Assembly: GCA_963836185.1 (NCBI GenBank)
Contig: CAWIIQ010000002.1
Coordinates: forward strand, 320,001-384,000
DNA from: Candidatus Krumholzibacteriia bacterium
GTDB taxonomy: Bacteria; Krumholzibacteriota; Krumholzibacteriia; Krumholzibacteriales; Krumholzibacteriaceae
DNA length: 64,000 nucleotides
Direction of reading: 5' to 3'
The position numbers and the translations under genes are program-made. This document shows positions 1,233 through 52,145 of this stretch, one piece after another. Positions within the stretch are counted from its first letter, which is position 1, and every line of letters starts with the position of its first letter. The notes under the pieces are model-generated. The model was given only the letters and a program-made list of their open reading frames with translations. It did no database searches and was not told the origin of the DNA.

Positions 1233-1297
1233 TCAGTCGAGGATCGCGAAGCTATCAGTCGAGGATCGCTAAGCTATCAATCGAGGATCGCGAAGCT
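1233..1297. repeat. 22-bp tandem repeat x3 matching the 3' end and stop codon of GWxTD paralog 1
   Basis: TCA(G/A)TCGAGGATCGC(G/T)AAGCT(A) at 1233, 1255, 1277; copy 3 encodes SFAILD* on the minus strand. Confidence 0.9.
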
Positions 1298-2459: not shown

Positions 2460-2502
2460 TGTTACTGATGCCCCTCGGTAACACCCCTCTGTGGTGGGAT
2501 CA

Positions 2503-4338: not shown

Positions 4339-4440
4339 ATTAATTTTCCCCTGTATCTCCCCGCGGTGGGATCCCTGTCTAAATATAGGGCGATTTGCCG
4401 CCGCTTCAACGACAAATAAAAAAATGTATGTTAATAAGAA

Positions 4441-5991: not shown

Positions 5992-6038
5992 CGACCGTGC
6001 CTTTCGCTGAACGGAGATATATACAGGCGGCGGGGTCC

Positions 6039-7616: not shown

Positions 7617-7705
7617 GATTGTGATGGCACTGTACGTTATATCGGTATTTCTCAGTCTCGGGGCATGAACGGGATATCAATATAATAAACATTGTTACTT
7701 CTTTC

Positions 7706-8785: not shown

Positions 8786-8831
8786 GGCTGGTATTTACCC
8801 CTGGAAAAGCACGAGGTTCCCTGCTGTCGGG

Positions 8832-10232: not shown

Positions 10233-10572
10233 GACAACAGCTTAGTTTAAAGTAAATCTTCCGGCGCGTCGCGGATCGTACCTTTCGGTCAGGTGCAACG
10301 ATCGTTCCGGCGGCGCCGGCCGGAAGTGATGAAATAACGGATATCCGGCCTGTCCGCTCCCCTGGTCGCTTGATAAAAGAGGCCTCAAGGGGATTTCTAT
10401 ACCTGTACCCGATAGTGGACAGGACAGGTGTATTCTGTCCCCGTAACGGGACATCGCCGAGCCCCATTCGAACCGGCAGTCAGCCGGGCCGACGGCGCTT
10501 TCATCGCCCGGTAATTTATCACATATCCGCGTGCGGATGACAGCCTATTCTGAATGCTTGCCCGGAGGGTAA

Positions 10573-13500: not shown

Positions 13501-16500
13501 TCTACGTCGCAGTACATCGAGATATGGGTCAACGACTATACGGTGGACCAGGATGACAGGCGGGGAGTGCTGCATATCGATTTCGGAAAGATCGATGAGG
13601 ATTTCCATCAGCCCGAGTTGAACCGGCACGACAACGAGAACGCTATCAACTGGACGAACGAGGCCGACACCGGGTTCGTCGGCGAAAAGTATGAAGATAG
13701 GCCGTTCAACAGGGATTTCAACGAGGACAAGTTCGACGAGGTCATGGGCGTATACATGTGGATCAACTCGAGGTTCGGGAACTCCAGGGCTGACAACGAG
13801 GACATGAACGGGAACGGCCGCCTCGATGAGAGCAACGAGTACTATACCATCGCGCTCGACCTCGCTGACACGGCGATAATCGATGTACAGAGGGATTTCT
13901 CCGGGGTCACCGAATACTGGAATGATCCCGAGAAGGGATCGATCAACAGGCAAAAGAGCTGGAGGATGTACAGGCTCGATATCACCAAGGCGGCGCGGAT
14001 GGGCGACCTGGCTCCCAGGCTCGACAAGATCTCCCATATGAGGATCTGGGTGGAGAACATCGATCAGGTCCAGGCGATCACGCAGACTGACAGGTCCCCC
14101 GATAACATGGTTGAGATCACAGGGGTCAAGTTCGTCGGCAGCAGGTGGGAGTACAACAATGTAAGGGACCTTGCCAATCATGAGGTCCCGATCAATCCCG
14201 ATACCCTGGACCCCGCCCATGAAGGTCAATCTGGGGACGATAAACAACAAGGACAACCCTTCGATCTACACGACGCCATATCCGCCCGATGTCGAGGAAG
14301 GGATACAGAACCGCGAACAATCCCTGCTGTTCGCGGTCGAGAACTTCCATCCGGGCTATTCGTTCAAGTCGATGAAGCGATTCTTCGGGGCAGGGCCTGA
14401 GTTTCATGCAGTACGAGGAGATCCAGTTCTTCATCCGCCCTGACAACGACCTTGTCGGCGGAGTGGCAGAGCAGGACAGTATGGAGTTCTTCCTGCAGAT
14501 CGCATACGACAGCCTCAACTATTATGAGATGGCCATACCCCTCAAGGACGCGCTGGCGAACAAATGGCAGTGGGTCAACATACGGATGAGCGACCTGACG
14601 AACATGAAGATCGACGCGGTGCCCGGCAAGATAACCGAAAAGGAGATCACCGATACGGCCGATCCGTCAATGACATATATGGGGAGGCTCCGGGGCGATC
14701 CCAGCCTGTTCAGGGTGAGATTTCTGTTCGCCGGGATCAGGTATCCTCGCGGAGAAGAAAGGGCGAAGGGTACTCTGTGGTTCAACGACATCGCCCTTGG
14801 ATGGGTGCGCAAGGATATCGATCATGCGGAAAGGGTCGGCTTGTCGGCGAGTTTCGCCAATGTATTGTCATTGAATGCCAGCTACCAGAGGACCGGCCCC
14901 GAGTTCAGGTCGCTGAAGCAGAAGGCAGGAAGCGGCACGACGAGCGACAATTTTCTCATGTCGGGCAAGACCGAGATCAATCACATCATCCCGACACTCG
15001 GGTTCACTATCCCTATCACCGGGAAATACAGCAAGTCGCAGTCGAAGCCGAAGTATCTCTCGCAGAGCGACGTGGAGATTGCCGACGAGGCGGTCCAGGA
15101 ATCGCAGAAGACGATAAGAAACAGTTACTCATACAGTCTCTCAATGAGCAGGCGCGGTTCGAAGAACCTGATAATGAAGCACCTGTTCGACAATCTCAAA
15201 GCGGGCGCCAGTTACTCGAAGTCCAACCTCGCATCGCCGACGGTGCTGGATACGTCGTGGTCATACAGCTGGAACACGAACTACCAGATCCAGTTCAGCA
15301 AGGACCGGAAGCTGAATCTCTTCAAGGGAATCGGTTTCAGGTACTGGCTCACGAGCTTTTCCTACAACGCGGCCGGCTCGAAGGCTCTGAAGAACACATA
15401 TTCGTACAACGGTGAAAGGTATATCAAGAGCCCGACAGGATTCTCGCACAACTGGAACAACGAGATGTCGATGAGCTACGATCCGTTCGAGTCGATCAAG
15501 ATCAACTTCCGGAGGAACGAAAAACGGAACATGATGAATTACCGGGAGTTCTACGGAATTCCCATCGGAAAGCTCTACGACTACAGGGAGAGCTTCGAGT
15601 TTCAGTACCAGCCTCGCGGACAGGTGTGGCTGCTCTCGCAGTTCAACCCGAGATTCGAGTATACATCGCGATACGGAGAGAACCTCAATCCGAGTTTGAG
15701 AGGGCCCGGCGATCCCGAAGACACGAGAAACGTCAGCAGCGAGAGACAGATCAATGTCGTCTTTGATGTCGACATCGGTGGATACGCCATCGATTTCGGT
15801 AAGTTGATCAGGGTGTTCGGTGAAGACGAGACGGCAGTGAGTATGCCAGGATCTTCCGGCGCCACGCTTGACAAGCAGAAGGAGGATTTCAGGAGCAAAT
15901 TCGACGGCAGGGTGAAGTCGGACCAGGGGGAAGGCCTGGGCGAGAGAAAGTCGCTTGTCGATGATGCTCCGCAGCAGGAGCCGCCGCCAGAGGGGCAGGA
16001 AGAAGGTGAACAGGAAGAGAAGAAGGGCGCCTACTCGGATCTGATGGTCCAGAAGCCGCGAGGGGAGATAGCCGGGCTGGGACAACCGAAGACAGACGAG
16101 GAGAAGGCCGCCGAGGCGGATACGATCAAGAAACCGAGGGGGGACTCCTGGAGACTGGTCAAAATGGCCCTGAGGTTTGTCGGCAGGATAGATCCGATAA
16201 AGAGCGCTATCCGTATCGATGACAGGAGCAGCTATCAGCGTCTGTACGAGAGGGCGAGCCTCGCTTACCGTTTCGGTTTCGACCGTGGATCGGGCGTGAT
16301 CGGTTCCTCGTGCACTGAGGAAGAATGTTCGCCTGAGAACGATCCGAACAGAGCTTCGAAGAGGATCAATCTCGATCTCAGGTCGGGCCTCGACCTGACC
16401 AGCAACATCTCGGCCGATATACGCTTCAATATGTCGAGGAACACCGATGAGGCCGATGCCAGGTTGACTGAGTCCGAGAACATGACCTGGCCCGACATAG

Positions 16501-17046
16501 CCGTGAACTGGAAGGGCCTGGAGAACTGGGGGCTGCTCAGAGGACTGGTGAAATCGCAGCAACTTCACTATCAACTATATAAGGAAGACGACGAAGAGTA
16601 TCGCGGTCGACAGGCAGGAATTACGCGTTGAGTCCCAACTGGAGCCTTACCTGGAAGAACACGCTCTCGACGAACCTGTCGTTCTCATTCAGCAAGCAGA
16701 CGAAGATCGAAAAGAACCAGGAGATCTGGGACCAGACATGGTCGGGTAATCTCGAGCTGCGCTACGACATCAAGGGATCGAAAGGGCATATCGATACCCG
16801 GACTCGGCAGCAGGCTGTCGTTCGAAAGTAACTTTGACCACGGTACTTAACCTCGGTTACAGTTCGACGGAGAGCCATAATCTGCCTGCGTCGACTGTCT
16901 TGACGGTCTCTCCCCGTTTCACATATACTTTCAGCCGGAATATTTCGGGAAGCCTGACGCTCAACTACAGGAGGGTGGCAGGCGGCAGGTACGGGTACAT
17001 CAACCACGAGGTCGGGCTTCATGCATCCGCGGAATTCAAATTCTAG
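10573..17046 (+). CDS. sprA: SprA/Sov-family outer-membrane protein (type IX secretion translocon homolog), ~2,100 aa, split by about 4 indels
   Basis: Signal peptide; GTIGEKINV, YTGFDDEIIKLIEMGD, GLFGVK, GEEPTRN, AYIDDMEG, YIEIWV, LHIDFGKIDED, EDMNGNGRLD, LWFNDI; colinear ORFs 10573, 14171, 14406, 16628, 16834; ends ...SAEFKF with a terminal Phe like a beta-barrel. Confidence 0.85.
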
Positions 17047-36227: not shown

Positions 36228-36965
36228 ATGCAAGTGAAGCTTCTGCGATTGTTTTCCGTGATGATACTCGCCATCGTGACAGCGGTCTCACTGACCGGTG
36301 TCGCGTCTGCGCAGACTCATCCATGTGGTGATGGTGCGCTGCCGTACGAGGGCAGCTGGACAGCGCCGGGCGGGGGCCTGCTCGAGGGCAGGATCTCCGA
36401 GGCGTGGTGCTACTCACCATTCTATTCCGGAGTACCCGGCAACACTCTGAACGCGGAGTCTTGGGACGGGGCCGCTCTGGGCACTCAGTGGAAGATATGG
36501 GGAATGTCGATCGACGCCGCCGGCGGTGTCGAAGTCGATCGCGATGTCAACGCATCGGGATTCGGCTGGATCGACTATGTGACGAACTACGAGGGAGGCA
36601 ACTTCTGGCTCGAGGGGAACAATCCCTGGAGCGACGGGACTGACCTCGATGGGTACGTCACGGTCTGCAACGTGAACGCGAGAGTGACTGTCGTGGGCAA
36701 TATGCCCGTAGCAGTCACGTCGAACATCACCATAGTAGGCGTGTTCGACCTCTGTGAGCTGTGCTCGATCGAGATATCCGCAAACTCGACGAGAATGTGG
36801 AAGACCGGGGACGCCGCCGCGATGCCGGCGGGTTATCCGCCCTTCCTCTGCAGCGCTGACAGCGGCGAGCTGCACTATACGTGCTGCCTGACCGCTACGA
36901 TAATGTGCTCCGTGACCGGCACCGAAGAGTCGACATGGGGCGCGATCAAGGATATGTACAGGTAG
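36228..36965 (+). CDS. secreted Cys-rich hypothetical protein with C-terminal TEESTWGAIK tail
   Basis: GGAGG RBS, signal peptide VASA|Q, 9 Cys, paralog of 37129..37845, ends GTEESTWGAIKDMYR. Confidence 0.85.
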   Translation: MQVKLLRLFSVMILAIVTAVSLTGVASAQTHPCGDGALPYEGSWTAPGGGLLEGRISEAWCYSPFYSGVPGNTLNAESWDGAALGTQWKIWGMSIDAAGGVEVDRDVNASGFGWIDYVTNYEGGNFWLEGNNPWSDGTDLDGYVTVCNVNARVTVVGNMPVAVTSNITIVGVFDLCELCSIEISANSTRMWKTGDAAAMPAGYPPFLCSADSGELHYTCCLTATIMCSVTGTEESTWGAIKDMYR

Positions 36966-37128
36966 GTCCGCTGCCTGACATAAGCGAATCCTGAACTTGC
37001 GGGGGTGATACTACTCGCAGTGCTTTTCATCCGGCCCGCTGACGGGAGGTGATCGCAAGGTAGATTCGCAAGACGGGTTTCCGATGGATAGAATGATCCG
37101 TCACTTTATCTGGAACCGGAGGGAAATT

Positions 37129-37845
37129 ATGAAGGTTTTGAAAATGCTGCTCATCGTTGCGGGAATGATGCTTCTCGCGACGGCTGTCTCCGCGCAGTTC
37201 TGCAACTGCGATGTTCAGTACATTCCCAACCAGGGCTACTATTCCACTTACGCGGGAACACTCCTTCCCGGGCGTGTATCCGAGGGATTCTGCGGGACCC
37301 CCGTCAATGGAGGAGTCCCGGGCAACACACAGGATGCCATGTCGTGGGATGGCGCTACCCTGGGCGGGCAGTGGCACGTATGGGGCATGGCGATCGACGC
37401 TGCCGGCGCTGGTGAAACGGGCCGCAGTCTAGACGCGACAGGCACGGGCTGGATCGACTACGTCACGAATTATGACGGGGGCAACTTCTGGCTCAACGGT
37501 GCGTACTTCGGCTCGTCGGGATTGGATTTCACCGGCACGATCTCGTACTACAATGTCAGTGCGAGGGTCAGCCTGCTGTACGGCCAGGTAACCGGTGTCA
37601 CATCGAATGTGACCTTCAACGGTCAGTTCACCGAGTGCGAGTGCTGCTACATCGAATTCGCCATCGCCAACGCGATGAGGGTATGGCCGAACATCGAGGG
37701 CACGTCGATGCCGTCTTTCTACCCGGCGTTCTACTGCGGGCCGACAGGCGAGCTCTTCGATGCCTGCTGCATCCTGATGAGTGTCTCCTGCCCGGTGGGC
37801 ACGGAAGAGACGAGTTGGGGCGCGATCAAGGAGATGCACAAGTAG
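37129..37845 (+). CDS. secreted Cys-rich hypothetical protein (paralog) with C-terminal TEETSWGAIK tail
   Basis: GGAGG RBS, signal peptide AVSA|Q, 10 Cys, shared GVPGNT/SWDGA/GWIDYVTNY.GGNFWL blocks, ends GTEETSWGAIKEMHK. Confidence 0.85.
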   Translation: MKVLKMLLIVAGMMLLATAVSAQFCNCDVQYIPNQGYYSTYAGTLLPGRVSEGFCGTPVNGGVPGNTQDAMSWDGATLGGQWHVWGMAIDAAGAGETGRSLDATGTGWIDYVTNYDGGNFWLNGAYFGSSGLDFTGTISYYNVSARVSLLYGQVTGVTSNVTFNGQFTECECCYIEFAIANAMRVWPNIEGTSMPSFYPAFYCGPTGELFDACCILMSVSCPVGTEETSWGAIKEMHK

Positions 37846-38160
37846 GCCTGCATGGAGACTGTGATTTTTCGGATGTGACGGCCGGGCAAGGGTCGGCCGT
37901 CACACCCGGTTCGAGCATCGTCGGAGGGGCAACCAGGGGATTCAGCGATCACATTACAGGAGTGTGGCTTCTTGTCCGGCTGACGCCGGATCAGGAGGGG
38001 GAGAGGCATTCTTGTCTCGATTTTACACAGGGACTATCCCGAAAACATACATGACAACCGCGAGGGGAGGTATGCGATGACCGGATTGTCACCGTAACCT
38101 CGACCGCAGGGGTACGGGTTTAACTGATAGTTGCTTCTCAACTGTTTAGGAGGGGGTACC

Positions 38161-41100
38161 ATGAAAAGACTCGCGTTAGTGTCCGCACTCTGTCTTCTCG
38201 TCTGCTTTTCGCTGACGGCAGGATCGAAGGCGGCTACTCTGAACGTCCCCGGTGACTACGCAACGGTCCAGGCGGCGATAGACGCGGCGGTAGCTGGTGA
38301 CGAGATCGTCATAGCTGCCGGGACCTGGACTGAGAACATCACAATAAACAAGACTCTCACACTGAAAGGTGCACAGGCCGGTATCGACGCTAGAGGCAGG
38401 ACAGGTTCCGAGACGATCCTGACCTGCGCCTCCGGGCACCTCGTGACAGTCGCCGCGGTCGACGTGGTCCTCGATGGACTCACGATGACCGGTACCGCAG
38501 CGGCCGGACGTCTCGGCAACTGCGACAGCCACGGCTCAGGATTCGAGATGCGCAACTGCGTCATGGACGGAGTCGCGCAGAGAGGTTTCTGGTTCAACGT
38601 CACATCACCGGACATCGTGCTGGAGTACAATGTCTTCGATGCGGCCCTCTGGACCGATTCTTACTCTGTAGCGCACTTCGACGGCTCCGACGTATTCAAC
38701 GATCTGTACATCGGAAACAACGAGTTCACCGGTGGTTCGATCTTCGCCGGGAACGTTACATTCAATTCATCTGGATTCCAGTTAGTCGACAACCTGTTCG
38801 ATGGCTGCTCCATGAATCTCGCATCAGCGTTCGAGAACGCGACTGTTTCGGGGAACATCTTCCGAAACAACGGCTACACGAACATGCAGGCGGCATTCAA
38901 GAACAGCACGATCTCCTACAACCAGTTCGAGGCAACGGGGCCTTCGCCCTACGCGGGCTACCCGTCCGCCTGCCTGCAGTTGTACGGGACAGATTACGGA
39001 TTGGCCTCAACTAATGTGACTATCGAAGGAAACACATTCGAGTTCAACGGTTCTGCCGCGCCGGCCGATCCGGCCAACGGCATACGCTTCCGTGCGGGAC
39101 TCGATGCCTCGACGATCACGGTCCGCGACAACGCCTTCATCGACGGCGGAGCCCAGGCTACCGCCCTTGCGGTGAGGCACCAGGGGACCGGCGACGCTGA
39201 CGCCTCCGGCAACTGGTGGGGATCGAATGATCCTGCTGGCGTGAACGCGCTTGCCAACGGCGGAACGCTCGTCGATTACACCCCGTGGCTCGATACTGGT
39301 ACGGACAACCGTCCCGGGATCGGCTTCGAGGGCGATTTCTCCGCTCTGCACGTCGATGACGACAGCCCCCAGACGGGCATCGTCGGGATCGCGCAGGAGG
39401 GTATCGACCTCGTCGACGGCAGCACCGTCTATATCCATGACGGCACCTACGAGGAGCAGCTTGATATCGGCAAGGATCTCGTCCTCCAGGGAGACGGCCT
39501 GGGTACGGAGATCCTCTCACCCGATCTTCTGGCGCTCTCATGGGCCACGAGCAAGGATTATCGTGCGATCATATATATCCATGATGCTGATGCCGAGATC
39601 CGCGACATAACACTGAACGGAGCCGGCAAGGGGAACGCGAATACAGGGTTCCTCGGTGTCGGGTTCAGGAACGCGGGCGGCGGCATCTATGACTGCGATA
39701 TCCTCGACATCCGAAACACGCCGTTCAGCGGCGCACAGTATGGTGTCGGTATCAGTTCCTGGAACGACGATCTGACCTCACGGTCGATCGATGTCCACGG
39801 CTGTACGCTCACCGGATTCCAGAAGAACGCTATGGCGCTCAATGCCGACGTGACGACAGGCCTTGCGGTCGATGTCCGCGGTAACACGATCACCGGTGCG
39901 GGCGCGACTACAGTAACAGCGCAGAACGGTGTGCAGGTCTATGGTGACATCGCCACCGGTACCATAGCGGACAACGTCATAAGCGGGATCGCTTACGACA
40001 ATACAGCCGATGTCACGAAGTGGGTAGCGACCAGCATCCTGAATTACTATGCTGATGTCGATATCACCGGCAATACGATCACGGCTGCCCACATGGGTAT
40101 CTACAATATCGACGGTGCAGGCCTGATCAGCGAAAACGACCTGACGATCGAGAAGATCGGTGTATACGCTTTCGGTATCATCGGCAGCGATCCGCCGAAG
40201 GCTGTTCCCTCTCCGGCAGGGATGGATGACATGCCAGTCGGTTCTTCGAGGCCTTTCGACGGGGCGCCTCTCGCCCTGCTCGATGTCGACATACTCGACA
40301 ATGTCGTGACATTCACCGGCCCTGACAATACGGCGACCTTCGGTATCGAAGTAGATGCCGGCTGGGGACCGAATGATCTCGATGCGACGATCAATGGAAA
40401 CATCGTCACCGGTTTCGAGGTTGGTATCGAGGTATATACCTGCGAGAGCGGTTGCGCCGCCGGTATCTTCACCGCGGTCGATGCCAGATTCAACGGCCTG
40501 TTCAGCAATACACTGGCTGTCCGTTCGAATGTCGACACGATCACAGTCGATGCCTCGGGCAACTGGCTCGGATCAAACGTCCCCGCGGCGCTCATCGCGG
40601 GTACACTCGATTACACTCCGTGGCTCGACGTCGGAACAGACATGAGTACCGACATCGGGTTCCAGGGTGATTTCTCCGCCCTGCACGTCGATGACGACAG
40701 CCCGCAGACGGGCCTTGTCGGAATCGTGCAGGAGGGAATCGATATGGTCGACGGCAGCACCGTCTACATCCACGACGGTACATACGAGGAGCAGCTCGAG
40801 ATCACAAGCGATCTCGTCCTTCAGGGAGACGGCGCGGGGACTGTGATCCTTTCGCCAGACGCCCTTCCGCTCTTCTTTACCACGGGTACACTCAACAACT
40901 ACCCGGTCGTCTATATCCACGACACAGACGATGTGGAGATAAACGATCTCACCGTCGACGGCGCGGGAAAGGGTAACGCGAACTACAGGTTCCTCGGGAT
41001 CGGATACCGCAACGCAGGCGGAGGAGTCTACGACTGCTCGATCCTCGGGATCATGGACACCCCGTTCAGCGGCGCGCAGCACGGCGTAGCGATGTACTTG

Positions 41101-44016
41101 TACAACGATGACCTGACTACAAGGTCGATCGACGTACATGGGACTACGATCACCGGGTTCCAGAAGAACGCTATGGCGCTGAACGCGGAGCGAACGACAC
41201 CTCTCGCCGTCGATGTGCGAGACAACATTATTACCGGTGCCGGAGAGACCGGCGTTACGGCCCAGAACGGTATCCAGGTCTCGGCGGCCCTTGGTACCGG
41301 CGATATCGAAGACAATGTGATATCGGGAATCGCTTACAACGGCGGCAGCTGGGTCGCTACCTCGATCCTCAGCTACTACGGCGTTCACGCGATAGACGGC
41401 AACACGATCACCGGTTCCCATATGGGAATCTATAATATCGATGGAGCGGGAACGATCTCGGGGAACGATGTCGAGGTCGAAATGATCGGTGGTTACTGCT
41501 GGGGTATCGTTGCCAGCGATCCACCGAAACTGAAGCCATCTCCGTTCGTCGAAGAAGAGGCTCCGCTGACCTCGGGCAGGGATATGCTCAAGGCCCCGCT
41601 AGCCGTTCTCGACGTAGATGTCATTGGCAACACGGTGACGAATGTCGGAACGACTGTCGCAGGCACATACGGCATCGAGGCCGACGCCGGATACGGTCCC
41701 GACGACCTCGACATCACGATCAGTTACAACACTGTCTGTAACTTCGAGGCCGCGATCGAGTTCTGGGTCTGCCAGAGCACCTGCGACACGGGTGTCTTCA
41801 CCAGCGCTGTGGCCAACTACAACTATATAGGCTGCGGCAATACGTACGGTATCCGCTCTAACGCCGATTATCTCATGGTAGACGGCACGAACAACTGGTG
41901 GGGCGACGCATCCGGGCCTTATCACGCCACGCTCAATCCGACCGGTACGGGAGACGCTGTCTCCGATTACGTCGACTTTGATCCGTGGCTGGGTGCTCCC
42001 AACCAGCTCAGCGTAGTGCCGGCCTACGGCACGACGAACTGTCTCGATCCGATCACCTACACCTTCTGGCTCGACCATGTCGGTGTGGATGAGGTACGCG
42101 GAATCGACGTGACCTTCCAGGTCGACGGCGCGGTAGTGTCGGTCGGCAACGTATCGACTGATATCGTCGAAGGATCGTACCTGCCCGGAATCGGCGGGAC
42201 GACCTTCTTCGCTCTCGACAATGGCGGCGGAGAGTATCAGATCAGCACGTCGATCCTCGGCGGGACCACCGGCGCCACAGGTTCCGGCGATCTCTTCACG
42301 GTAGTATTCACGCCTGTGGCCGAGGGACTCAGCGCGATCACGATCACCGACCTCAAGGTCCGTGACGTGAACAACGTGCCTCTCAGCGTGGCGATGGTCG
42401 ACGGAGAGGTCCGCATCGACTGCACCGGGCCGACGATGGAGCCGATCGCCGAGGCGGAGGGCGTCTGCTACAACGTGGCGCCCACATTCGCGAACTTCGG
42501 ATTCGACGATGACCAGGCGCTCGACTGGGCCGAGTACCAGATCGACGCGGATGGATGGGTCACGATATTCACCGGCATCGATGTGCCCGAGTGGAACGAC
42601 GACGGCTGGGCGCTGCCCGGCTTCGCCGGACTCTCGGAAGGGAGCCACACCGTTTACTTCCGCGTGGCAGACATGGCGGGGAACGAGAACGGAGAGGGCA
42701 CCCCTGATACGTACAGCTGGTCGTTTATCAAGGATACCGTGCCGCCGGCGGCGCCTTCCGGATTCTCGGCGATGCCGGGCCACAACAAGGTCCATCTCGC
42801 CTGGACGAATCCCACGGGCGACGCTTCGTTCGTCGGCGTGGAGATCAGGCTCGTCGCATGGGGCGACTATCCCCAGTATATCACCGCGCCTTCGTACCCC
42901 GCCGATCATCTCGGCGGAACGTTCGTCACGCAGGTGCCCGGTGAGTCGTTCGACGACGATCCGCGCGCACCGCGCGACATCTATTACTACGCGGCATTCT
43001 CGTACGACTGCGCCGGCAACTACTCGGTCTTCGACGCAGGAGCGGCGGACAGGTCGACGAGCTACTGGCTCGGCGACATCTTCGCCGGGTATGACGGCCT
43101 CGTCAACTTCAACGATCTCGGAGATTTCTCCAACGCGTTCGGCTCTACAGAGGGCGGAGGCGGAGGATGGATCGCCGAGGCGGACTTCGGGCCGACCGAC
43201 GACTGGTCGAGGTTCGGAATACCTCTGCCCGACGACGCGATCGACTTCGAGGACCTGATGATCTTCTCGATGAACTACGGCAACGTGGATCCCCTGGGAT
43301 TCGACTTCGTGCCTGAGGAGAGATCGACGGAGAACCTCGAGAACATGGTCGCCTTCGATCTCGTTCCCACGACTACCGATGCGGGAACGATCGTCTCGAT
43401 CATGATGAGCAGCCGCGCCTCGACACTGAAGGGCGCGAGGCTGGTCATCGAGACTGGCGACGGATGCGAGATCGTAAATATCTCGAAGGGTGACGCTGTC
43501 GCCACGCGCGGCGATGTCTTCTTCGGGACTATCCCCTCGTTCGGCGGCATGGAGGTCTGCCTCTCGGCGCTCGGCGTCGACAAGCCTCTTGCAGGCTCCG
43601 GCGAGGTCGCGAAGATACTCGTAAAGAGTGAAGGTTCGATAAACGTCTCGCTCGCCGAGGCCGATATCAGGGATATCGAGAACAGGCAGTTCGTTCTCGA
43701 GGGGACCGGCAGTTATGAAGGCCCCGAGGTCCCGATAGCCGACGCGCTTAACCAGAACTTCCCGAACCCGTTCAACCCGGCGACAACGGTCGCCTTTGAC
43801 CTGGCGAAGCCCGCTTCGGTCAGGATAGGGATCTACGACGTCTCGGGACGCCTGGTAAGGACGCTTATCGACAGAAGCATGGAGGCCGGGAGTCACGAGG
43901 TCGGCTGGAACGGTACGAACAATATGGGTACCGGTGTTCCCAGCGGCATGTACTTCTACAGGATGACGACATCCGACGGCTTCACGGCTACAAGGAAGAT
44001 GATCCTGCTGAGGTAG
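38161..44016 (+). CDS. giant secreted protein (~1,950 aa): parallel beta-helix repeats, cohesin-like, Ig/FN3-like and dockerin-like modules, T9SS/FlgD-Ig C-terminal domain
   Basis: Signal peptide; VPGDYATVQAAIDAA..GD.I.IAAGTWTENITI; N/D/G-rich beta-helix turns; GSGDLFTVVF cohesin-like block; paired DGLVNFNDL/DDAIDFEDL loops; QNFPNPFNP...IYDVSGRLVRTL...SGMYFYRM...RKMILLR. Confidence 0.88.
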   Translation: MKRLALVSALCLLVCFSLTAGSKAATLNVPGDYATVQAAIDAAVAGDEIVIAAGTWTENITINKTLTLKGAQAGIDARGRTGSETILTCASGHLVTVAAVDVVLDGLTMTGTAAAGRLGNCDSHGSGFEMRNCVMDGVAQRGFWFNVTSPDIVLEYNVFDAALWTDSYSVAHFDGSDVFNDLYIGNNEFTGGSIFAGNVTFNSSGFQLVDNLFDGCSMNLASAFENATVSGNIFRNNGYTNMQAAFKNSTISYNQFEATGPSPYAGYPSACLQLYGTDYGLASTNVTIEGNTFEFNGSAAPADPANGIRFRAGLDASTITVRDNAFIDGGAQATALAVRHQGTGDADASGNWWGSNDPAGVNALANGGTLVDYTPWLDTGTDNRPGIGFEGDFSALHVDDDSPQTGIVGIAQEGIDLVDGSTVYIHDGTYEEQLDIGKDLVLQGDGLGTEILSPDLLALSWATSKDYRAIIYIHDADAEIRDITLNGAGKGNANTGFLGVGFRNAGGGIYDCDILDIRNTPFSGAQYGVGISSWNDDLTSRSIDVHGCTLTGFQKNAMALNADVTTGLAVDVRGNTITGAGATTVTAQNGVQVYGDIATGTIADNVISGIAYDNTADVTKWVATSILNYYADVDITGNTITAAHMGIYNIDGAGLISENDLTIEKIGVYAFGIIGSDPPKAVPSPAGMDDMPVGSSRPFDGAPLALLDVDILDNVVTFTGPDNTATFGIEVDAGWGPNDLDATINGNIVTGFEVGIEVYTCESGCAAGIFTAVDARFNGLFSNTLAVRSNVDTITVDASGNWLGSNVPAALIAGTLDYTPWLDVGTDMSTDIGFQGDFSALHVDDDSPQTGLVGIVQEGIDMVDGSTVYIHDGTYEEQLEITSDLVLQGDGAGTVILSPDALPLFFTTGTLNNYPVVYIHDTDDVEINDLTVDGAGKGNANYRFLGIGYRNAGGGVYDCSILGIMDTPFSGAQHGVAMYLYNDDLTTRSIDVHGTTITGFQKNAMALNAERTTPLAVDVRDNIITGAGETGVTAQNGIQVSAALGTGDIEDNVISGIAYNGGSWVATSILSYYGVHAIDGNTITGSHMGIYNIDGAGTISGNDVEVEMIGGYCWGIVASDPPKLKPSPFVEEEAPLTSGRDMLKAPLAVLDVDVIGNTVTNVGTTVAGTYGIEADAGYGPDDLDITISYNTVCNFEAAIEFWVCQSTCDTGVFTSAVANYNYIGCGNTYGIRSNADYLMVDGTNNWWGDASGPYHATLNPTGTGDAVSDYVDFDPWLGAPNQLSVVPAYGTTNCLDPITYTFWLDHVGVDEVRGIDVTFQVDGAVVSVGNVSTDIVEGSYLPGIGGTTFFALDNGGGEYQISTSILGGTTGATGSGDLFTVVFTPVAEGLSAITITDLKVRDVNNVPLSVAMVDGEVRIDCTGPTMEPIAEAEGVCYNVAPTFANFGFDDDQALDWAEYQIDADGWVTIFTGIDVPEWNDDGWALPGFAGLSEGSHTVYFRVADMAGNENGEGTPDTYSWSFIKDTVPPAAPSGFSAMPGHNKVHLAWTNPTGDASFVGVEIRLVAWGDYPQYITAPSYPADHLGGTFVTQVPGESFDDDPRAPRDIYYYAAFSYDCAGNYSVFDAGAADRSTSYWLGDIFAGYDGLVNFNDLGDFSNAFGSTEGGGGGWIAEADFGPTDDWSRFGIPLPDDAIDFEDLMIFSMNYGNVDPLGFDFVPEERSTENLENMVAFDLVPTTTDAGTIVSIMMSSRASTLKGARLVIETGDGCEIVNISKGDAVATRGDVFFGTIPSFGGMEVCLSALGVDKPLAGSGEVAKILVKSEGSINVSLAEADIRDIENRQFVLEGTGSYEGPEVPIADALNQNFPNPFNPATTVAFDLAKPASVRIGIYDVSGRLVRTLIDRSMEAGSHEVGWNGTNNMGTGVPSGMYFYRMTTSDGFTATRKMILLR
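39274..41990 (+). repeat. intragenic ~1.33-kb (~445 aa) tandem duplication of a beta-helix module
   Basis: DYTPWLD.GTD...GDFSALHVDDDSPQTG.VGI.QEGID.VDGSTVYIHDGTYEEQL begins at ~39274 and ~40609. Confidence 0.9.
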
Positions 44017-44027
44017 TACCTCAGGAT

Positions 44028-44063
44028 CGGTGCGGGGAGCGGCCGTTCCGTTTCCCCGCACCG
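44028..44063 (+). other. strong intergenic stem-loop without U-tract
   Basis: CGGTGCGGGGA (44028-44038) / TCCCCGCACCG (44053-44063). Confidence 0.75.
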
Positions 44064-44072
44064 GTGATCTTC

Positions 44073-44914
44073 ATGGAGAAAAGATTGAAAAGACTGAAGT
44101 CAATGATCAGCAGCAGGGCAGGGGCCGCAACGGCGGCCCTCGCCCTCTGTCTGCTCTTTCCGGCACCTGCCGCGGCGCAGACCATTTCCGTATGGGTCGA
44201 ACCGGCGGAGACGAGGGTCGCACCGGGCGAATTCTGTACGCTGTATGTCCATGTCGACGATCAGGTCGATTCGCTGAGTTGCGCGGAATGCTGTCTCGGA
44301 TTCGATTCGACGGTCGTATCCTTTGTTTCCGCCCGCCAGGGGCAGCTCTACGACGAGGCGCCTTTCCCGAAGTTCTTCGACCTCGACGAGCCGTCGGCGG
44401 ATTCGGTCCTGGCCACCGTCTGCGTACTGGGATACCGCTCTTATATCATCGCTCCGGGGAGTATCTTCGAGGTAAGGTTCGAGGCGCTCTCTCCCGGGGT
44501 GACCGATGTGGAGATCGGGCGCATCTCGGTGCTCGACATCGACAGGGTCCCGCTCAGACGAGGAAGTCGGGCAGGCTGGAAGGATAATCGTCACGACACA
44601 GACTGGCGGCACGGTCCCGCCGGCGGAGGAGGGAAGGCTGTCCAACTTTCCCAACCCGTTCAATCCGGTCACGACGATAGTACTCGAGCTTCCAGGCGGA
44701 AGCGGGGATCGACTCTCTACGGATATCAGGATATACGACGCGTCAGGCAGGACCGGTGCGCAGCCTTTTCAGCGGCGCGGCTCCCGCCGGGCGCAGCGAA
44801 TTTCAATGGGACGGTATGAGCGACTCCGGCTCGGCCGTAAGTTCCGGTCTGTACATGGCGGTCTCGAGGACCGGGACGCTGAGGCTGGAGAGAAAACTGG
44901 TACTTATACGTTAG
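44073..44914 (+). CDS. secreted cohesin-like domain plus T9SS/FlgD-Ig C-terminal domain (frameshifted twice)
   Basis: Signal PAAA|Q; LGFDSTVVSFV..QG, PGSIFEVRFEAL..G; next frame NFPNPFNPVTTI..IYDASGR; final frame WDG...SSGLY...RKLVLIR* (TAG 44912-44914). Confidence 0.75.
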
Positions 44915-44929
44915 GATCGGGAGAAGACT

Positions 44930-45475
44930 ATGACACTTATGAGATACAACGTCCTTCTGGCAGCCGTGGCGCTGCTCGCGATGGCTTCAAGCCCCGCCAT
45001 GGCCGATGAACTGTATTTCTCGCCGGCAGACACGATGATCTGGGACTACGCTCCCTTTCCCGTTCATGTCATGATCGATGACGTAGACAGTCTCATGGGC
45101 TGGGATATATCGGTATCGTTGACCGGGAATCCCTGCGTGAAGATACTGGGTGTCATCGAAGGCTCCCTTCCAGGCAGTAACGGCGACGAGACATTCTTCT
45201 ACTGGCTCGATCAGTTGAACCCCGGCTCCATCCATGTGAACGGATCTGTCCTCGGTACAGTCGTCGACGGCCCCGGAATCCTCTTTACGATATACTTTCA
45301 GGCTCTTCTGCCGGGTGTAGCATGGCTCGACTTCACAGACTCCGAGCTGCGCAACGGCGTCAACAGCAGCCTGGCACATGTCAGCGACAAGCGGGCGCGC
45401 ATCGAGGTCCTCGAAGCGATAGCCACGGAGGAAACGACCTGGGGAGCGATAAAGTCGGTCTGCCGCGATCGATGA
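44930..45475 (+). CDS. secreted cohesin-like domain protein with C-terminal TEETTWGAIK tail
   Basis: Signal PAMA|D; VHVMIDDVDSL.G.DI, EGSL, GPGILFTIYFQAL.PG; ends ATEETTWGAIKSVCRDR. Confidence 0.8.
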   Translation: MTLMRYNVLLAAVALLAMASSPAMADELYFSPADTMIWDYAPFPVHVMIDDVDSLMGWDISVSLTGNPCVKILGVIEGSLPGSNGDETFFYWLDQLNPGSIHVNGSVLGTVVDGPGILFTIYFQALLPGVAWLDFTDSELRNGVNSSLAHVSDKRARIEVLEAIATEETTWGAIKSVCRDR

Positions 45476-45620: not shown

Positions 45621-48600
45621 TTGAATATCCATTCCAGGACACGCAGGGGTGTCTCTATCGCGGCCCTGGCCGCGTTCGCTGCCGTTCTCGCCGCCGGAAT
45701 CTCCATGGCGGGGGAGAACGAGGATCTCCGTTTCGCGAAAAGGCTGCAGGGTGACAGGATGTTCGTCGCCGCGGCGGAGGAGTTTCTACGGTTCTCCGAG
45801 AAATACCCGGCCAGCACACTTCGAGCCTCGGCCCTCTTCTCGGCCGGCGAATGCTGGATGCAGGCAGGGAGGGCGAACGACGCCCTGGCATCATTCGAAA
45901 GACTTCTGTCCGATTACCCCGATGACGTGAACGCCTGCAAGGCGAGGTACTATCGCGGCACCATACTCAAGGCCCTGAAGAAGTTCAGGGAGGCTGCCGA
46001 TGAGCTGATGATGATACCGGAAGCTTCGGGAGGTTGTCCCCTCGAGGGGAAAGCCCTTCTCGAGGCGGGGGAATGTCTTGTCGCAGCCGGCGATCCGCGC
46101 GAAGCGGTGACTGTCCTGAGACGTGTCTCCGACCCGGCGAGGTATCCCGACCAGGCATCGAGAGCGGGGTACAGCCTCGCGGTCGCGCTCGAGAGATCGG
46201 GCAGGGATCTCGAAGCGGAGAAGATACTGAAGGAAACGGTCGACAAGTATCCGAAGTCGCCGGTGGCCGCCCTTTCGATGATGAAGCTCGGCGACAGGTC
46301 CCTGGCCAGGGGTGAATATGACGAGGCCGCCCGGTATTTCAGGCAGGCGGCGGAAGACTACGAGGAGGATTCCCTCCGCGAAAAGGCGATGTCGAAGCTG
46401 CTCGAAGCGGCTGAAGGGGCGGGGGATAAGGAAACGGTCCTGAAGACATCCGAAGAATACCTCAAACTCTTCCCCGACGGCGCGGGCAGGCCCCGGGCCT
46501 ATGAGCTCGGGATATTAGCCGCCAGGGAGACCGGAGACCGTGACAGGGCGATATCGATGATCGATTCGTGGCGGTCCGAAGAGGGGTACTCCGACCCGGA
46601 GGGAGAGTTCAGCCTGGTGAGGGCATCTCTCCTCGAGGAAAAAGGAAAGACTGAAGATGCCCTTGCAGAGCTTGCATGGTTCAGGCGCTCATATCCAGCC
46701 TCAGGATTTCTCGTCGACGCTCTCCTTCTTGAAGGGCGCCTCCTTGAAAAATCTAAAAAATATGAAGATGCCCTGCACCGCTATAATGTCGCGCTGGCTG
46801 AGGGAGCCTCCGGCGAAGAGAAGCTCGAGACCCTCGATCGCCTGGCGGAGATATCGGTCGTCCAGGAAGCCGATACCCTTTCCGCATTGAGATACTGGTC
46901 GATGATCGCCTCGGCTGACCGGGGCGGAGAAAAGGGTGAGGAGGCGCTCTGGCGCTCGGCAGGGGTAAGGGAGGCGGCGGGCGATATGCGTGGCGCGGCT
47001 GCCGATCTTCGCAGGATAGAGAAGGAATATACAGGCGGCAGATATGCCGTCGAGGCCGCTGAGAAAGCGGGCAGGATCGAGCTGCTTGCCGGCCCGGGTG
47101 GAGACGCTGAAGGAGCGCTCGCCCGTCTCGCTGTCGATGCCTCCATCACCGGCGGGGCGCGATATCTCGAGGCTGGAAGGATCCTCCTCGAGGAGGCGGG
47201 AAGGTTCAGGGAGGCTGCCGTATATCTCGAGAGGGCGATCGGGTCCGATCTGCCTGACGCCGAAAAGGCGAGGGCAAGGTACTATCTCGGCAATGCCCGG
47301 GCCCTCGGGTACGAGATATCTGGCGCGACAGGCAGCCCGGACGACGGCTTGAAGAAGAGCGCGATCGATGAGTGGTGGAAGGTAGCGCGAGAGGCCCCCG
47401 GCACTGAATGGGGAGGAAAATCGCACCGCGCGTGGCTCGGATACAGGCTCGATGAATGGGACATCAACGGGAAACTGAAGAGGCTCAACGAGTTTCTCGG
47501 CTATTACGGTTCGGACGGCGGGCACTACTGGTGGGCGCAGGAGAAGAAGCTCGAGAGTCTTTACGACGCCGCTCCAGGAAGGGACAACTGGGCGGCAGAC
47601 AGCGCGCTGACGATCGCGGGGCTGTTCCTTGACAATACCTCGCCGAAGGATGGAAAGAAGGAGGCTCTTCTCAGGTCGGGTTACCTCTACCGGATGACCG
47701 GTGATACGGAAAGAGCCGAATCGGCGCTCGCTTCGTTCGCGCGGACTTATCCTGACGATTACAGGACCGCGTCGGTCTATTACGATCTCGGCGAGACAAG
47801 GCTCAAGAGAAAAGATTACGCGAAGGCGCTCGAGGCCTACCAGTCATGCCTGACGAGGGATCCCCCGAGGAATCTCGCGGGCAGGTGCCTGCTCCGCTCG
47901 GGAGACTGCCTCTACTATACGCACGAATATGCTGGGGCTGCGGGGAAATACGCCGCCCTCGCGAGCCACGATCCTCCGACCGGGCTCGAAGACGAGGCGT
48001 CTTACAGGCAGGCCCTCGCCCTGAGGCAGGCCGGGAGGGGGGACGAGGCCGATGCTATACTCGGTTCCCTTTTCAAACGCGAAGATCTGCCCGCCGGGTT
48101 GCGGGCGCGGGTCCTCGAACTCACCGGCCGCCGGATGATCGATACGGGAGACTACGCATCGGCACGCGGAGTCTTCGAGGAACTCTGCAGCGCCCGCAAG
48201 AGTCCGGGTCCGCTGACGCTGCTCGGTGAGACGCTTCTCGAACTCGATCAGACGAAAGAGGCGGCCAGGCGTTTCGATGAGGCGATCAAGCTCGAGGGTG
48301 CCGACACCTGCCGTATACTCTCCGGGAGGTCGAGGTCGTACTTCGCCGCCGGTGACGACGAAGAAGGGAAACCGCGATCTCGACGAGATGACAAGGCTCT
48401 GCCCCGGCTATCCCGGGACCGCGCTCGCCCTTCTGGCGCGCGGCGAATCGGCTGTCGAGGCGGGAGACTGCGAGGGTGCTGTCGCGACCCTCGAATACCT
48501 TCGTGAGCACTATGCCGGGACCGATGCGGCGGCGGGCGCCCTCTACCAGCTCGCTCTCTGCGATGTGCGCAGGGGAGGGTATGCCGAGGCGATAGAGAAG

Positions 48601-49269
48601 CTCGGGTTATTCCTGCGGGAGTCACCCGAATCTCCCCTGACCGGCCAGGTCTATTTCAAACTGGCCACGGCACACTACGCCTCGGGGAGCAGGAATCTCG
48701 CCGCGGTGAATTATGCGCTTGCCGCTGAATCGACGGCCGACCGCGACACGAAATTCACAGCGTTGTCGAACCAGGCCCGTGTCTACCAGGAACTCGAGGA
48801 ATGGGGGAAAGCGGGCGATGTCTGGAAAGATGTGACCGGGCAGTTCCCCGAGAGGGATGACATCGTGGAGATATTCTTCAACCTCGGATTCTGCTACAGC
48901 CAGTCGGGTGACTTCGAGCTGGCCTGGGAGGTGTACCGCAGGATACCGGCTGTCGCGCTGAACGAGGAACAGCAGGGAAGGGCCCATTACTGGGCCGGAA
49001 TATCACTAAAATATCTCAACCGCTGCGAAGAAGCGATCCGAGAGTTTCTCCGTGTCCCCTACCTGAGGACGGGAGGGATGTGGGGGGTCACCTCCAAGCT
49101 CGAGGCGGCGGTCTGCTACGAGAAACTTGGACGCGTCGATGAGGCGAAAAGCATATACGCGCAGGTAGTCTCGGCCCACGGCGAGAAATCCGACTGGGGC
49201 TCGATGGCGAAGAAGTCCCTCGACAGGCTGGAGGCGGGAGAGCAGCAGCCGGAAAACAACGAAGAGTGA
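45621..49269 (+). CDS. large exported TPR-repeat protein (~1,200 aa; indel near 48370)
   Basis: Signal peptide; repeated A..F..LL..YP..A.Y..G TPR units; ORFs 45621..48506 and 48226..49269 are colinear. Confidence 0.8.
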
Positions 49270-49300
49270 TCAGCAGGTGACGTGCAGGAAGGGCAGCCGA

Positions 49301-52145
49301 ATGGCTCGTGAAGACCTCGTCGTCAGAGGCGCCAGGGAACACAATCTCAAGAATATCACAGTGACCGTGCCGCGCGGGAAGCTCGTCGTGATAACGGGGC
49401 TGAGCGGTTCGGGCAAGTCGTCTCTCGCCTTCGATACGATCTATGCCGAAGGGCAGAGACGTTATGTCGAGTCGCTGTCGAGCTACGCGAGGCAGTTCCT
49501 CGAGCAGATGGAGAAACCGGACGTCGACTCGATCGAGGGACTCTCGCCGGCGATCTCGATCGACCAGAAGACCACCTCGAGGAATCCCCGTTCTACGGTC
49601 GGGACGATCACCGAGATCCATGACTACCTCAGGGTCCTCTTCGCCCGCGCCGGCGAGCCTCACTGTCCCGGGTGCGGGCGCCCGATCAGCCGCCAGACCG
49701 TCGCGCAGATCGTCGACAGGCTGACCGCCGCCGGAGAGGGAAAGAAGCTCGTCATCATGGCCCCCGTAGTGAGGGGGCGCAAGGGTGAGCACAAGGCCCT
49801 GCTGGCGAAGCTGGCGAAGGAGGGCTTCGCGCGGGTGAGGGTCGACGGTGAGATGCACGACCTGGGCGACGAGATCGCCATCGACAAGAAACGCAAGCAC
49901 GATATAGAAGTGATAGTCGACCGCGTCATAATCAAGGATGGCGTCGAGAGGCGGCTGGCCGACTCGGTCGAGACAGCGGCGAAGGCGGGAGAAGGGATAA
50001 TCCTTGTCCAGCAGGGAGGAGAGGAGACCCTGTACAGTCTCGAGTACGCCTGCCCGTGGTGCGGCGGCGGACTCGGCGAGATATCACCGAGGATGTTCTC
50101 GTTCAACTCCCCGTACGGGGCCTGCCCGACATGCCACGGCCTCGGCACTACGAACGATTTCGCCGAGGAGCTTCTCGTGCCCGATCCGACCCTCAGTGTT
50201 GCCGAGGGAGCTCTCGCATCGATAGGATCGCCGAAGGCGAACTGGTACAGGCTGCGGCTCGAGGCACTCGCCGAGCTGCATGGTTTCTCGCTGACAAGAC
50301 CTTTCGGCAAGCTCTCGAAGAATGCCCGCCGGATGATACTCGAGGGGACCGACGACGAGATAGTCGTCCAGTACGATTTTGAACGGGGCAAGGGGGAGTA
50401 CTACACAAATTGGGAGGGTGTCGTCCCGAACCTCCGCCGCCGGTATCACCAGACCCGCTCCGATGCGATAAGGCGCTGGATCGAGACGTTCATGACTTCG
50501 AGTCCATGCTCTGACTGCCATGGAACACGGCTGAAGCCCGATAGCCTCTCCGTTACCCTCGCCGGCAGGAATATCGCCGAGATATCGTCTCTGACTATCG
50601 AGAGGGCGTCGGAGTTCTTCGGATCGCTCGGCCTCGAGGGGAACAGGGCGATCATCGGCGGCCCGCTCCTTCGTGAGATCACTTCGAGGCTGCAGTTCCT
50701 CCGCAACGTCGGCCTCGACTACCTCTCGCTCGATCGTTCCGCCGGAACGCTTGCCGGCGGCGAGGCGCAGAGGATCAGGCTCGCCACGCAGATAGGCTCG
50801 AAGCTCGTCGGTGTCCTCTACATACTCGACGAACCGTCGATCGGCCTTCATCAGCGCGACAACGCGAGGCTGATCGCTACGCTCAAGGAACTGCGGGACG
50901 CGGGCAATACAGTTATCGTCATCGAGCACGACAGGGACACGATCCTCGCGGCCGACTACGTCATCGATCTCGGGCCCGGCGCGGGAGAGCACGGTGGCGA
51001 AGTGGTCGCCGAAGGGACTCCGGCAGGAATATCCACCGTCAAGGAAAGCCTCACCGGGAAGTACCTCTGCCAGCGAGAGATACTTCGAGCTGAAGAGCGG
51101 CGAAGGGAGGGGCACGGGCGAGTCGCTCATCCTCAGGGGCGCGAGCGAGCACAACCTCAAGGAAATAGACGTCGAGTTCCCTCTCGGCAGGCTGATATGC
51201 GTCACCGGCGTCTCCGGCTCGGGCAAGAGCACACTCGTCGGGGATATCCTCTACAGGGCCCTTCACAGGATATTCCATCGAAGCACGAGGCTCGCGGGGA
51301 GGCACGACAGGATCGACGGCGTCGAACATATCGACAAGGTGATCAACATAGACCAGTCTCCGATCGGGCGGACGCCGAGGTCGAATCCCGCTACATACAC
51401 GGGGCTGTTCGGCCCGATCAGGGATCTTTTCTCCAGGCTCCCCGAGTCGCAGGTCCGCGGCTACAAGCCGGGGAGATTCAGCTTCAACGTCAAGGGCGGA
51501 AGGTGCGAGACGTGCAGGGGAGAGGGGATGATCAAGGTAGAGATGCATTTTCTCCCCGACGTCTATGTCCACTGCCAGCAGTGCAAGGGCAGGCGCTACA
51601 ACAGGGAGACCCTCGAGGTCACATTCAAGAACATCAATATCGCCGAGGTACTCGAAATGACCGTTGACGAAGCGTTCGATTTCTTTAAGAATATCCCCTC
51701 CGTCAGGAGAAAGCTGAAGGTGCTCAGGGAGGTCGGGCTCGGGTACATCCGGCTGGGGCAGCCGGCGACGACGCTGTCCGGGGGCGAGGCGCAGAGGGTC
51801 AAGCTCTCGTCCGAGCTTTCCAAGGTGAGCACCGGAAGGACGCTGTATATACTGGACGAGCCGAGCACAGGCCTTCACTTCGAGGACGTCAAGATGCTGA
51901 TGAGTGTTCTCGACAGGCTCGTCGAGAGGGGAAACACGGTGCTCGTCATAGAGCACAATCCGGATATCATCAGGCTCGCCGATCATATCATCGACCTCGG
52001 CCCCGAGGGCGGGGAACGTGGCGGCGAGGTAGTATACACCGGTTCACCGGCCGGCATCACTGGCTGCCGGGATTCGCACACAGGCGAGATGCTCAAGCAG
52101 TATGTGCGGGCCGGGAAAAAGAAAAGTAAAAAGAACAAGTCCTGA
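49301..52145 (+). CDS. uvrA: excinuclease ABC subunit A (indel near 51070)
   Basis: [67 protein letters not shown]. Confidence 0.97.

Follow-up and report, generated by a model that had tools for sequence, protein, structure and literature searches.

A short C-terminal tail on unrelated exported proteins of Krumholzibacteriota: a probable sorting or docking signal

A window of 64,000 nucleotides from the genome of a Candidatus Krumholzibacteriia bacterium (GenBank assembly GCA_963836185.1, contig CAWIIQ010000002.1, positions 320,001 to 384,000 of the forward strand) contains, at positions 36228 to 45475, five genes of which three encode proteins ending in nearly the same short tail. The tail sits where the C-terminal domain (CTD) of a type IX secretion system (T9SS) cargo would be expected, and the question raised by this locus is whether so short a sequence can act as a sorting signal in its own right and, if so, what reads it. 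It was found that the tail is a real and widespread C-terminal targeting motif which works like a sorting signal. That it is a minimal signal linked to the T9SS and its carrier PorV is, in our estimate, the leading reading, at about even odds. Coordinates refer to the 64-kb window unless a contig is given; the host genome (G000) is 3.5 Mb in size, C1 to C4 denote contigs, and G followed by a number denotes the other genomes compared.

The tail and its place at protein ends

Translation gave the three tails exactly as they had been set out in the preliminary description, on the forward strand at positions 36918 to 36965, 37798 to 37845 and 45422 to 45475. The first consists of a GTEES linker and a predicted helix, TWGAIKDMYR (helix at residues 237-244 of the AlphaFold2 model), and was covered by independent public-run contigs with 0 and 3 differences; the second was covered by a related version, and the third is helical at residues 171-180 of its model. 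The consensus extends over 15-17 residues, [PV]-[VT]-[PAG]-[VT]-E-x-[ST]-[ST]-W-[GST]-x-[IVL]-K-x-[LM]-[YF]-(R)-stop, and comprises two segments: the linker [PV]-[VT]-[PAG]-[VT]-E-x-[ST], then an 8-residue predicted amphipathic helix. In the models of the proteins encoded at 36228 and 44930 the tail helix was of low confidence (predicted local distance difference test, pLDDT, about 60) and separate from a confident core. The mean hydrophobic moment of the tail was 0.49 at 100 degrees compared to 0.36 at 170 degrees, a pattern closer to helix than to strand, and the amphipathic helix suggested beforehand was thus upheld as a prediction.

Conservation was assessed in two alignments chosen on the protein body and not on the tail, in which the tail Trp and Lys were 90-100% conserved (W237, at 90% or more, with K241, and W171 with K175) with [ST] before the Trp. 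All 48 homologues of the 36228 protein (48/48) have the tail, or a near variant of it, at their C-terminus, and the tail is kept in 43/43 homologues of the 44930 protein among the matches listed, its own protein included. Trp, Gly and Lys were also near-invariant at fixed spacing in 149/149 top hits of a tail profile, a figure set partly by the profile itself: this was built from 65 tails, and because 62 of these had been picked with a DNA pattern fixing W, G, K, Y and R, the corresponding columns are circular. No transmembrane stretch was seen in the tail, in which just 8-10 residues follow the Trp and a Lys lies centrally. The tail mostly ends in a single Arg, which is missing in family f4, and 0-3 residues vary after the Tyr; the earlier statement that both a transmembrane helix and a basic cluster are lacking therefore stands.

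The spelling of the tail was observed to shift across whole genomes. The host genome has an acidic G-T-E-E linker and W-G in 31/33 tails, family f4 mostly has W-S or W-T and ends at Tyr (W-S in 22/26 in G034, counted by eye), and many Eisenbacteria have a basic linker. From these genome-wide shifts of dialect we infer a single trans-acting reader, with which the tail may have co-evolved.

In the host genome, 35,483 six-frame segments with a length of at least 50 aa were scanned for a strict form of the motif. All 30 matches lay no more than 12 aa from a stop and none was internal; one of them has no linker and was dropped. With a position-specific scoring matrix (PSSM), 32 hits, every one terminal, reached at least 26 bits, followed by scores of 14.0 (internal) and 13.7 (terminal, taken as the 33rd), for a total of 33 tails, every one at a protein end. 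With a looser motif, 30 terminal matches compared to 3 internal ones were obtained in 2,787 gene proxies, the terminal zone of which makes up ~5% of residues. When 1.84 billion representatives were searched, the profile matched 2,450 clusters (50% identity) at E 0.001. Among the best 150, 148 were terminal, one was an unrelated repeat and one extended 35 residues beyond; the stop nearly always followed the tail after no more than about 5 residues. Often, three to eight small paralogous tail genes are arranged in tandem (C2:78708-80463; L039; L043; G174 C1:3010560-3018486).

Passengers and described sorting signals

The 210 tail carriers fell into 88 unrelated body families, and the 29 carriers of the host genome into 19. 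Using a hydrophobicity heuristic (and not SignalP) for all counts, signal peptides were scored in 25/33 host tail proteins compared to a background of 1,068/2,787. For 5 of the remaining 8 host proteins a signal peptide lay just upstream in another frame, and 74 of the 88 full-length top hits also scored positive. Carriers were mostly of 150-430 aa, with a median open reading frame (ORF) of 224 aa compared to 784 aa for the 96 type A CTD ORFs of the host genome (stop-to-stop ORFs; the tail set contained a single false hit and lacked a single true tail). Most tail bodies had no family match, and those recognised were of surface type, namely beta-helix, FG-GAP, lamin-tail, thioester with Ig, DNRLRE and choice-of-anchor W and X. 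For ten of the 33 host tail bodies, homologues occur within the set of 96 host proteins with a type A CTD. 'Choice-of-anchor' domains are bodies found with alternative anchors; for choice-of-anchor W, 20/20 genes in 101 genomes of the class end in the tail, directly after the domain, and 0 matches were found in 121 Desulfobacterota-centred genomes.

A lipoprotein-rich, weakly NTF2-like family carries 0, 2 or 4 tails, some of them internal, and two members of this tandem-tail family in the host genome are tail-less. The rows of this family are P0051, P0070, P0076, P0116, P0119, P0137 and P0166, with C3:85380 and C3:86790 in the host genome. With regard to gene neighbourhood, a tail gene lay less than 1.5 kb from a CTD gene in 8/32 cases (2.4 expected, p=0.001). 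CTD cargo was the only frequent neighbour in 105 tail loci, where no dedicated partner, receptor family or shuttle gene was found to recur.

Searches of Pfam, NCBIfam release 20 and PDB gave no relevant match to the tail. The three tail proteins and the 65 tail rows gave no match to TIGR04183, PF18962, TIGR04131 or PF13585, and the tails neither matched PF00404 nor have the EF-hand repeat of a dockerin. An Atlas search returned scores of 0.83 or lower, which are leads only, and no published description was found by motif spelling, which gave one unrelated match, or by topic in the main text of a mostly open literature. The tail is uncatalogued and belongs to no described CTD or tripartite family. 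Three findings had been named in advance as speaking against a signal, that is, confinement to these genes, equal occurrence in cytoplasmic proteins or at internal positions, and a match to a catalogued signal or domain; each was looked for and none was seen.

To our knowledge, the described T9SS signals are all folded domains of 40-100 residues from Bacteroidota. The tail is similar to the type A CTD, with its PorV shuttle and PorU sortase, in that it is C-terminal on surface proteins with Sec signals, occurs many times per genome and shares passenger families; it also has a Lys near the end and a linker that may be PorU-like, and SprA, PorV and PorU are encoded in the genome. The Lys of the type A CTD has been reported to contact PorV (PMC10994853). 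However, the tail is a predicted helix of ~16 aa compared to a beta-sandwich of 70-80 aa, and it differs in its small passengers and its occurrence on lipoproteins and in tandem. The Ig-like fold of that sandwich, with its motifs B, D and E, was not seen in the tail, which is too short to form it and which AlphaFold2 predicts, at a pLDDT of about 60, to be a short helix. A precedent for shrunken T9SS signals is found in the short CTDs described from Prevotella intermedia, which have 40-55 aa, three beta-strands and motifs B, D and E and are cut at PT|GI (PMC11969387); this site resembles the P-[VT]-[PAG]-[VT]-E of the tail, whereas the three motifs are absent from it. The type B CTD, for which PorP/SprF shuttles, orphan carriers included, have been described (PMC12618676) and which is reported as probably not cleaved (PMC10202324), sets an example of another signal class that has its own carriers, but it is a folded domain of ~100 aa, and no shuttle gene lies next to the tail genes. 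Outside Bacteroidota, type A domains have been noted in Poribacteria in a report according to which the machinery was not found there (PMC3909097).

Eight attributes of small sorting signals have been published (bioRxiv 2023.06.07.544157). Six of the eight were observed for the tail, including at least three near-invariant residues, carriers that share the signal alone, and homologues without it or with another; it lacks the other two, a transmembrane helix and a terminal cluster of 2-5 basic residues. Similar to LPXTG, PEP-CTERM, GlyGly-CTERM and MYXO-CTERM, the tail is terminal, multicopy and optional for a given body, and has an invariant signature on unrelated bodies with signal peptides. 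Unlike these tripartite signals, it has no transmembrane helix or Arg cluster, and its signature residues are found in the final third of the sequence.

Secretion machinery and the reading of the tail

The host genome encodes the T9SS outer-membrane translocon SprA within the window (10573 to 16631, forward strand, in two frames; TIGR04189, 329 bits), a candidate export pore. PorU is encoded beside PorV, with His-Gly and Cys-Thr motifs of catalytic type (by eye), and there are 11 PorV-family matches, 6 of them above the cut-off. The tail pattern was found in 149/151 genomes of the own-phylum sample (Krumholzibacteriota) at 0-75 copies, compared to about 1 for the control. The two zeros, G005 and G015, were considered as tail-less negatives and rejected, as they carry a W-[ST] variant ending in Tyr or Phe. 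SprA was detected in 151/151 and PorU in 147/151 of these genomes (PorU in 117/117 of high quality). It had been proposed to profile the motif against the machinery: the tail does occur together with SprA, PorU and PorV, but due to the universal presence of SprA, co-occurrence within this phylum has no discriminating power.

In a second sample of 71 genomes centred on an Eisenbacteria record, the pattern was present in 65, and the eight poorest genomes all have SprA. Variant tails were identified in 4/5 apparently tail-less Eisenbacteria, and no tail was found in G213. A further 40 genomes were reached via pattern loci, and were thus chosen on the tail pattern and partly overlap the own-phylum set; 33 of them have 15 or more tails, and 32/33 have SprA above the cut-off. 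The exception, G164, has no SprA above the cut-off but has 8 PorV above it. In the control samples the tail was at background, with 14 matches compared to 8 for the control in 61 Elusimicrobia-centred genomes and 14 compared to 6 in 81 Myxococcota-centred ones (Polyangiaceae record). A sub-cut-off SprA-like gene, mostly of 1,700-1,900 aa, was present without tails in 18/18 tested Elusimicrobia-centred genomes (G261-G320), and SprA was absent from the one genome of the Polyangiaceae-record set that was checked. Tail-rich genomes nearly always have SprA, while the reverse does not hold.

Spread to Fibrobacteraceae, Gemmatimonadota and Verrucomicrobiia was not accepted, as several such records share SprA coordinates with own-phylum genomes; for this reason the Fibrobacteraceae and Fibrobacter titles (L021, L059, L063, L094, L112 and L124) look mislabelled. 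Records of Polyangiaceae, Kerfeldbacteria, Anaerolineaceae, Nocardia and Humidesulfovibrio gave isolated hits (1-3 in each genome) without SprA, and these were attributed to chance or to misbinned contigs.

If the tail is a T9SS signal linked to PorV, the passenger would fold in the periplasm after Sec export, and the tail helix, with its face of Trp, Ile, Leu and Tyr and its invariant Lys, would be bound by a single reader acting in trans. The likeliest candidate is a barrel of the PorV family located at the SprA pore, and this carrier would then bring the passenger to the surface. Least certain are two further steps, in which PorU may cut some tails in the linker and join the passenger to a surface glycolipid, and in which tails with a Pro-linker and tandem tails may remain bound to the carrier as an anchor. 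With regard to cutting, PorU sites of the form T/E/D/N|G/A/S have been reported (PMC10202324), and the putative P1' position is G, A or S in 27/30 host-genome tails. A regular expression for the linker matched 32/91 type A linkers compared to 8% of shuffles, having been picked after both sets were viewed. A more specific proposal, less likely than not, is that the tail defines a helical T9SS signal class of ~16 residues, the shortest natural one, which would be read by a PorV-family barrel in a T9SS without GldL and GldM, would direct tens of small proteins in each genome, among them lipoproteins, to the cell surface in at least two uncultured phyla, and in tandem copies would form multivalent anchors.

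A number of observations weigh against a T9SS signal of this kind. Pro occupies the putative P1' position in 113/149 top hits elsewhere, and a PSSM version of the linker was not significantly different from shuffles (p=0.17). No homology of the tail to the type A CTD was detected by cross-search of hidden Markov models (HMMs) or by hhalign, using an HMM of 91 host CTDs, and the known CTDs are reported to be beta-structured, the short ones of 40-55 aa included (PMC11969387). Lipoprotein-like carriers were found in 7/176 cases compared to 0/96 type A ORFs of the host genome, and tandem or internal copies in 7/150 top hits; lipoprotein, tandem and internal occurrences point towards a ligand that binds without having to be cut. 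The link between tail and SprA rests on two related phyla, in which SprA was present wherever it was looked for, and is not phylogenetically independent. In addition, a search for GldL, GldM and GldN, run with no positive control, came up empty in five SprA-bearing genomes (G000, G065, G151, G005 and G174), and PorZ was seen only below the cut-off in the same five. The T9SS of these genomes is possibly motor-less; in Flavobacterium the motor has been reported as required for release (PMC10994853).

The alternative that survives best, possible though on balance unlikely, is that the tail is a non-covalent, dockerin-like docking peptide for a scaffold receptor, perhaps the large type A CTD cargo, and is neither cut nor read by the translocon. 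This would fit the two to four tandem copies and the internal copies in one lipoprotein-rich family that is tail-less in the host genome, the lipoprotein carriers, the Pro in the linker and the encoding of small passengers beside large CTD cargo. By fold match and by analogy, a cohesin with a tail also resembles anchoring scaffoldins: like OlpA, OlpC and SdbA of Clostridium thermocellum, the 44930 protein has one cohesin fold and then a C-terminal module. In OlpA and SdbA, from a monoderm host, the anchor is an SLH module, whereas in the 44930 protein the module is the tail, and its binding of a dockerin is putative. Docking is opposed by the lack of a recurring receptor family beside tail genes in the 105 loci and by the tie of the tail to the stop, which a pure binding module would not need.

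It is improbable that the helix attaches itself straight to lipid, without a dedicated protein reader, and serves as an interfacial anchor for the outer membrane or for vesicles. Trp, Tyr and Lys favour membrane interfaces, and both this composition and the amphipathic pattern (moments of 0.49 vs 0.36) would suit such an anchor. However, the near-invariant spacing of W, G and K and the genome-wide dialects exceed what lipid binding needs, and eight residues are short for stable anchoring. Of similarly low probability, and placed just after it, is reading in the periplasm by a factor other than the T9SS, such as a chaperone, a tail-specific protease or another exporter. The motor genes not detected in five genomes (no positive control), the presence of SprA in tail-poor genomes and the weak SprA-like gene in tail-less ones are in its favour; against it, the passengers are typical surface domains and the tail end varies by 0-3 residues, unlike the substrates of PDZ proteases, which read the terminal carboxylate. 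Exosortase was considered as the reader and rejected: although it is encoded in 4/5 genomes, the tail lacks a transmembrane helix, and a regular expression for PEP-CTERM-like ends had no match in the host genome. That the motif arose by chance, or is a strand belonging to the structure of the passenger domains, can be dismissed as exceedingly improbable given a terminal-only motif on 88 unrelated bodies with low-confidence helices parted from the core by a linker.

If the T9SS-linked reading is true, a helical signal of 16 residues would alter the view of what is recognised by the translocon or its carriers and could serve as a portable surface-display tag, tens of 'hypothetical' proteins per genome would be annotatable as envelope proteins, and T9SS-like export without a recognisable motor would be made testable. 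Were the tail a docking peptide, it would still be an uncatalogued, phylum-wide protein-targeting motif.

As regards candidate carriers, a quick PorV tree (in which three rows are wrongly extracted ORFs) splits a PorU-adjacent clade from an orphan clade and names no reader. Seven PorV paralogues lie directly after porU or a cargo-like gene (C1:2036246, C1:1234270, C4:6366, C2:159664, C1:1296471, C1:1974200 and C2:136061), and the cargo-like genes before PorV end in a K/R-x-x-[VI]-[VI]-[RKN]-like strand, resembling cognate type B pairs. The other four host PorV paralogues appear to be orphans, among them those at C1:1618086-1619180, C1:1887071-1888303 and C1:587766-588815, and members of one orphan clade are seen again in two further genomes.

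The five-gene locus and its surroundings

The five genes were confirmed at the locus, all in one orientation (forward strand). The first (36228 to 36965), identified by its ORF, AlphaFold2 model and homologues, encodes a Cys-rich all-beta protein of 245 aa with a Sec signal and the tail. Its family was modelled confidently (pLDDT 88) as all-beta and barrel-like, with weak matches to dirigent and Diels-Alderase barrels (best Z 8.5) and no Foldseek match at E 0.001. Another member of this Cys-rich family group is encoded at C3:8545-9423 of the host genome. The second gene (37129 to 37845) encodes a paralogue of 238 aa with 45% identity and the tail. Ribosome sites make 37129 and 38161 the likelier starts of the second and third genes.

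The third gene (38161 to 44016) encodes a type A CTD cargo of 1951 aa. It contains beta-helix repeats, a cohesin-like domain in its interior, a segment judged by eye to be dockerin-like, and a CTD of the T9SS type A/FlgD-Ig kind, which matched TIGR04183 at 35.3 bits (cut-off 23) and also PF13860. The fourth (44073 to 44914, start uncertain) encodes a cohesin-like protein with a type A CTD behind two frame changes. The preliminary description had given both genes a canonical CTD; this holds directly for the 1951-aa gene, whereas in the fourth the PNPFNP and the K-L-V-L-I-R end come into frame only once two frame changes are crossed. These are probably assembly errors, because sprA and several tail genes are frameshifted too; no independent public run covered the first of the two breaks.

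The fifth gene (44930 to 45475) encodes a protein of 181 aa with a Sec signal, a body of cohesin fold and the tail, as supported by its AlphaFold2 model (Foldseek E 1e-10) and homologues, and its best fold match is a non-cellulosomal cohesin. The tail is therefore present on two unrelated bodies, a cohesin fold and the all-beta 36228 protein, as had been claimed. The relatedness of the 44930 and 44073 proteins was likewise recovered (31% identity over 121 aa, E 8e-7), and the 44930 protein is also related to the internal domain of the 1951-aa cargo. In that cargo, a double Asp-rich dockerin-like segment (by eye) at 43021-43320 follows the cohesin-like domain, and the sole Pfam dockerin match (PF00404) in the host genome is in a different CTD protein at C1:356937.

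Elsewhere in the window, sprA is divergent from lptF, lptG and two GWxTD-domain genes (2503-4440 and 6039-7676), and the region 1277-16631 is a possible outer-membrane biogenesis cluster. Frameshift-split genes were observed for a tetratricopeptide repeat protein (45621-49269), a uvrA-like gene (49277-52145) and the exosortase (C1:244051-244802), which is consistent with an unpolished assembly.

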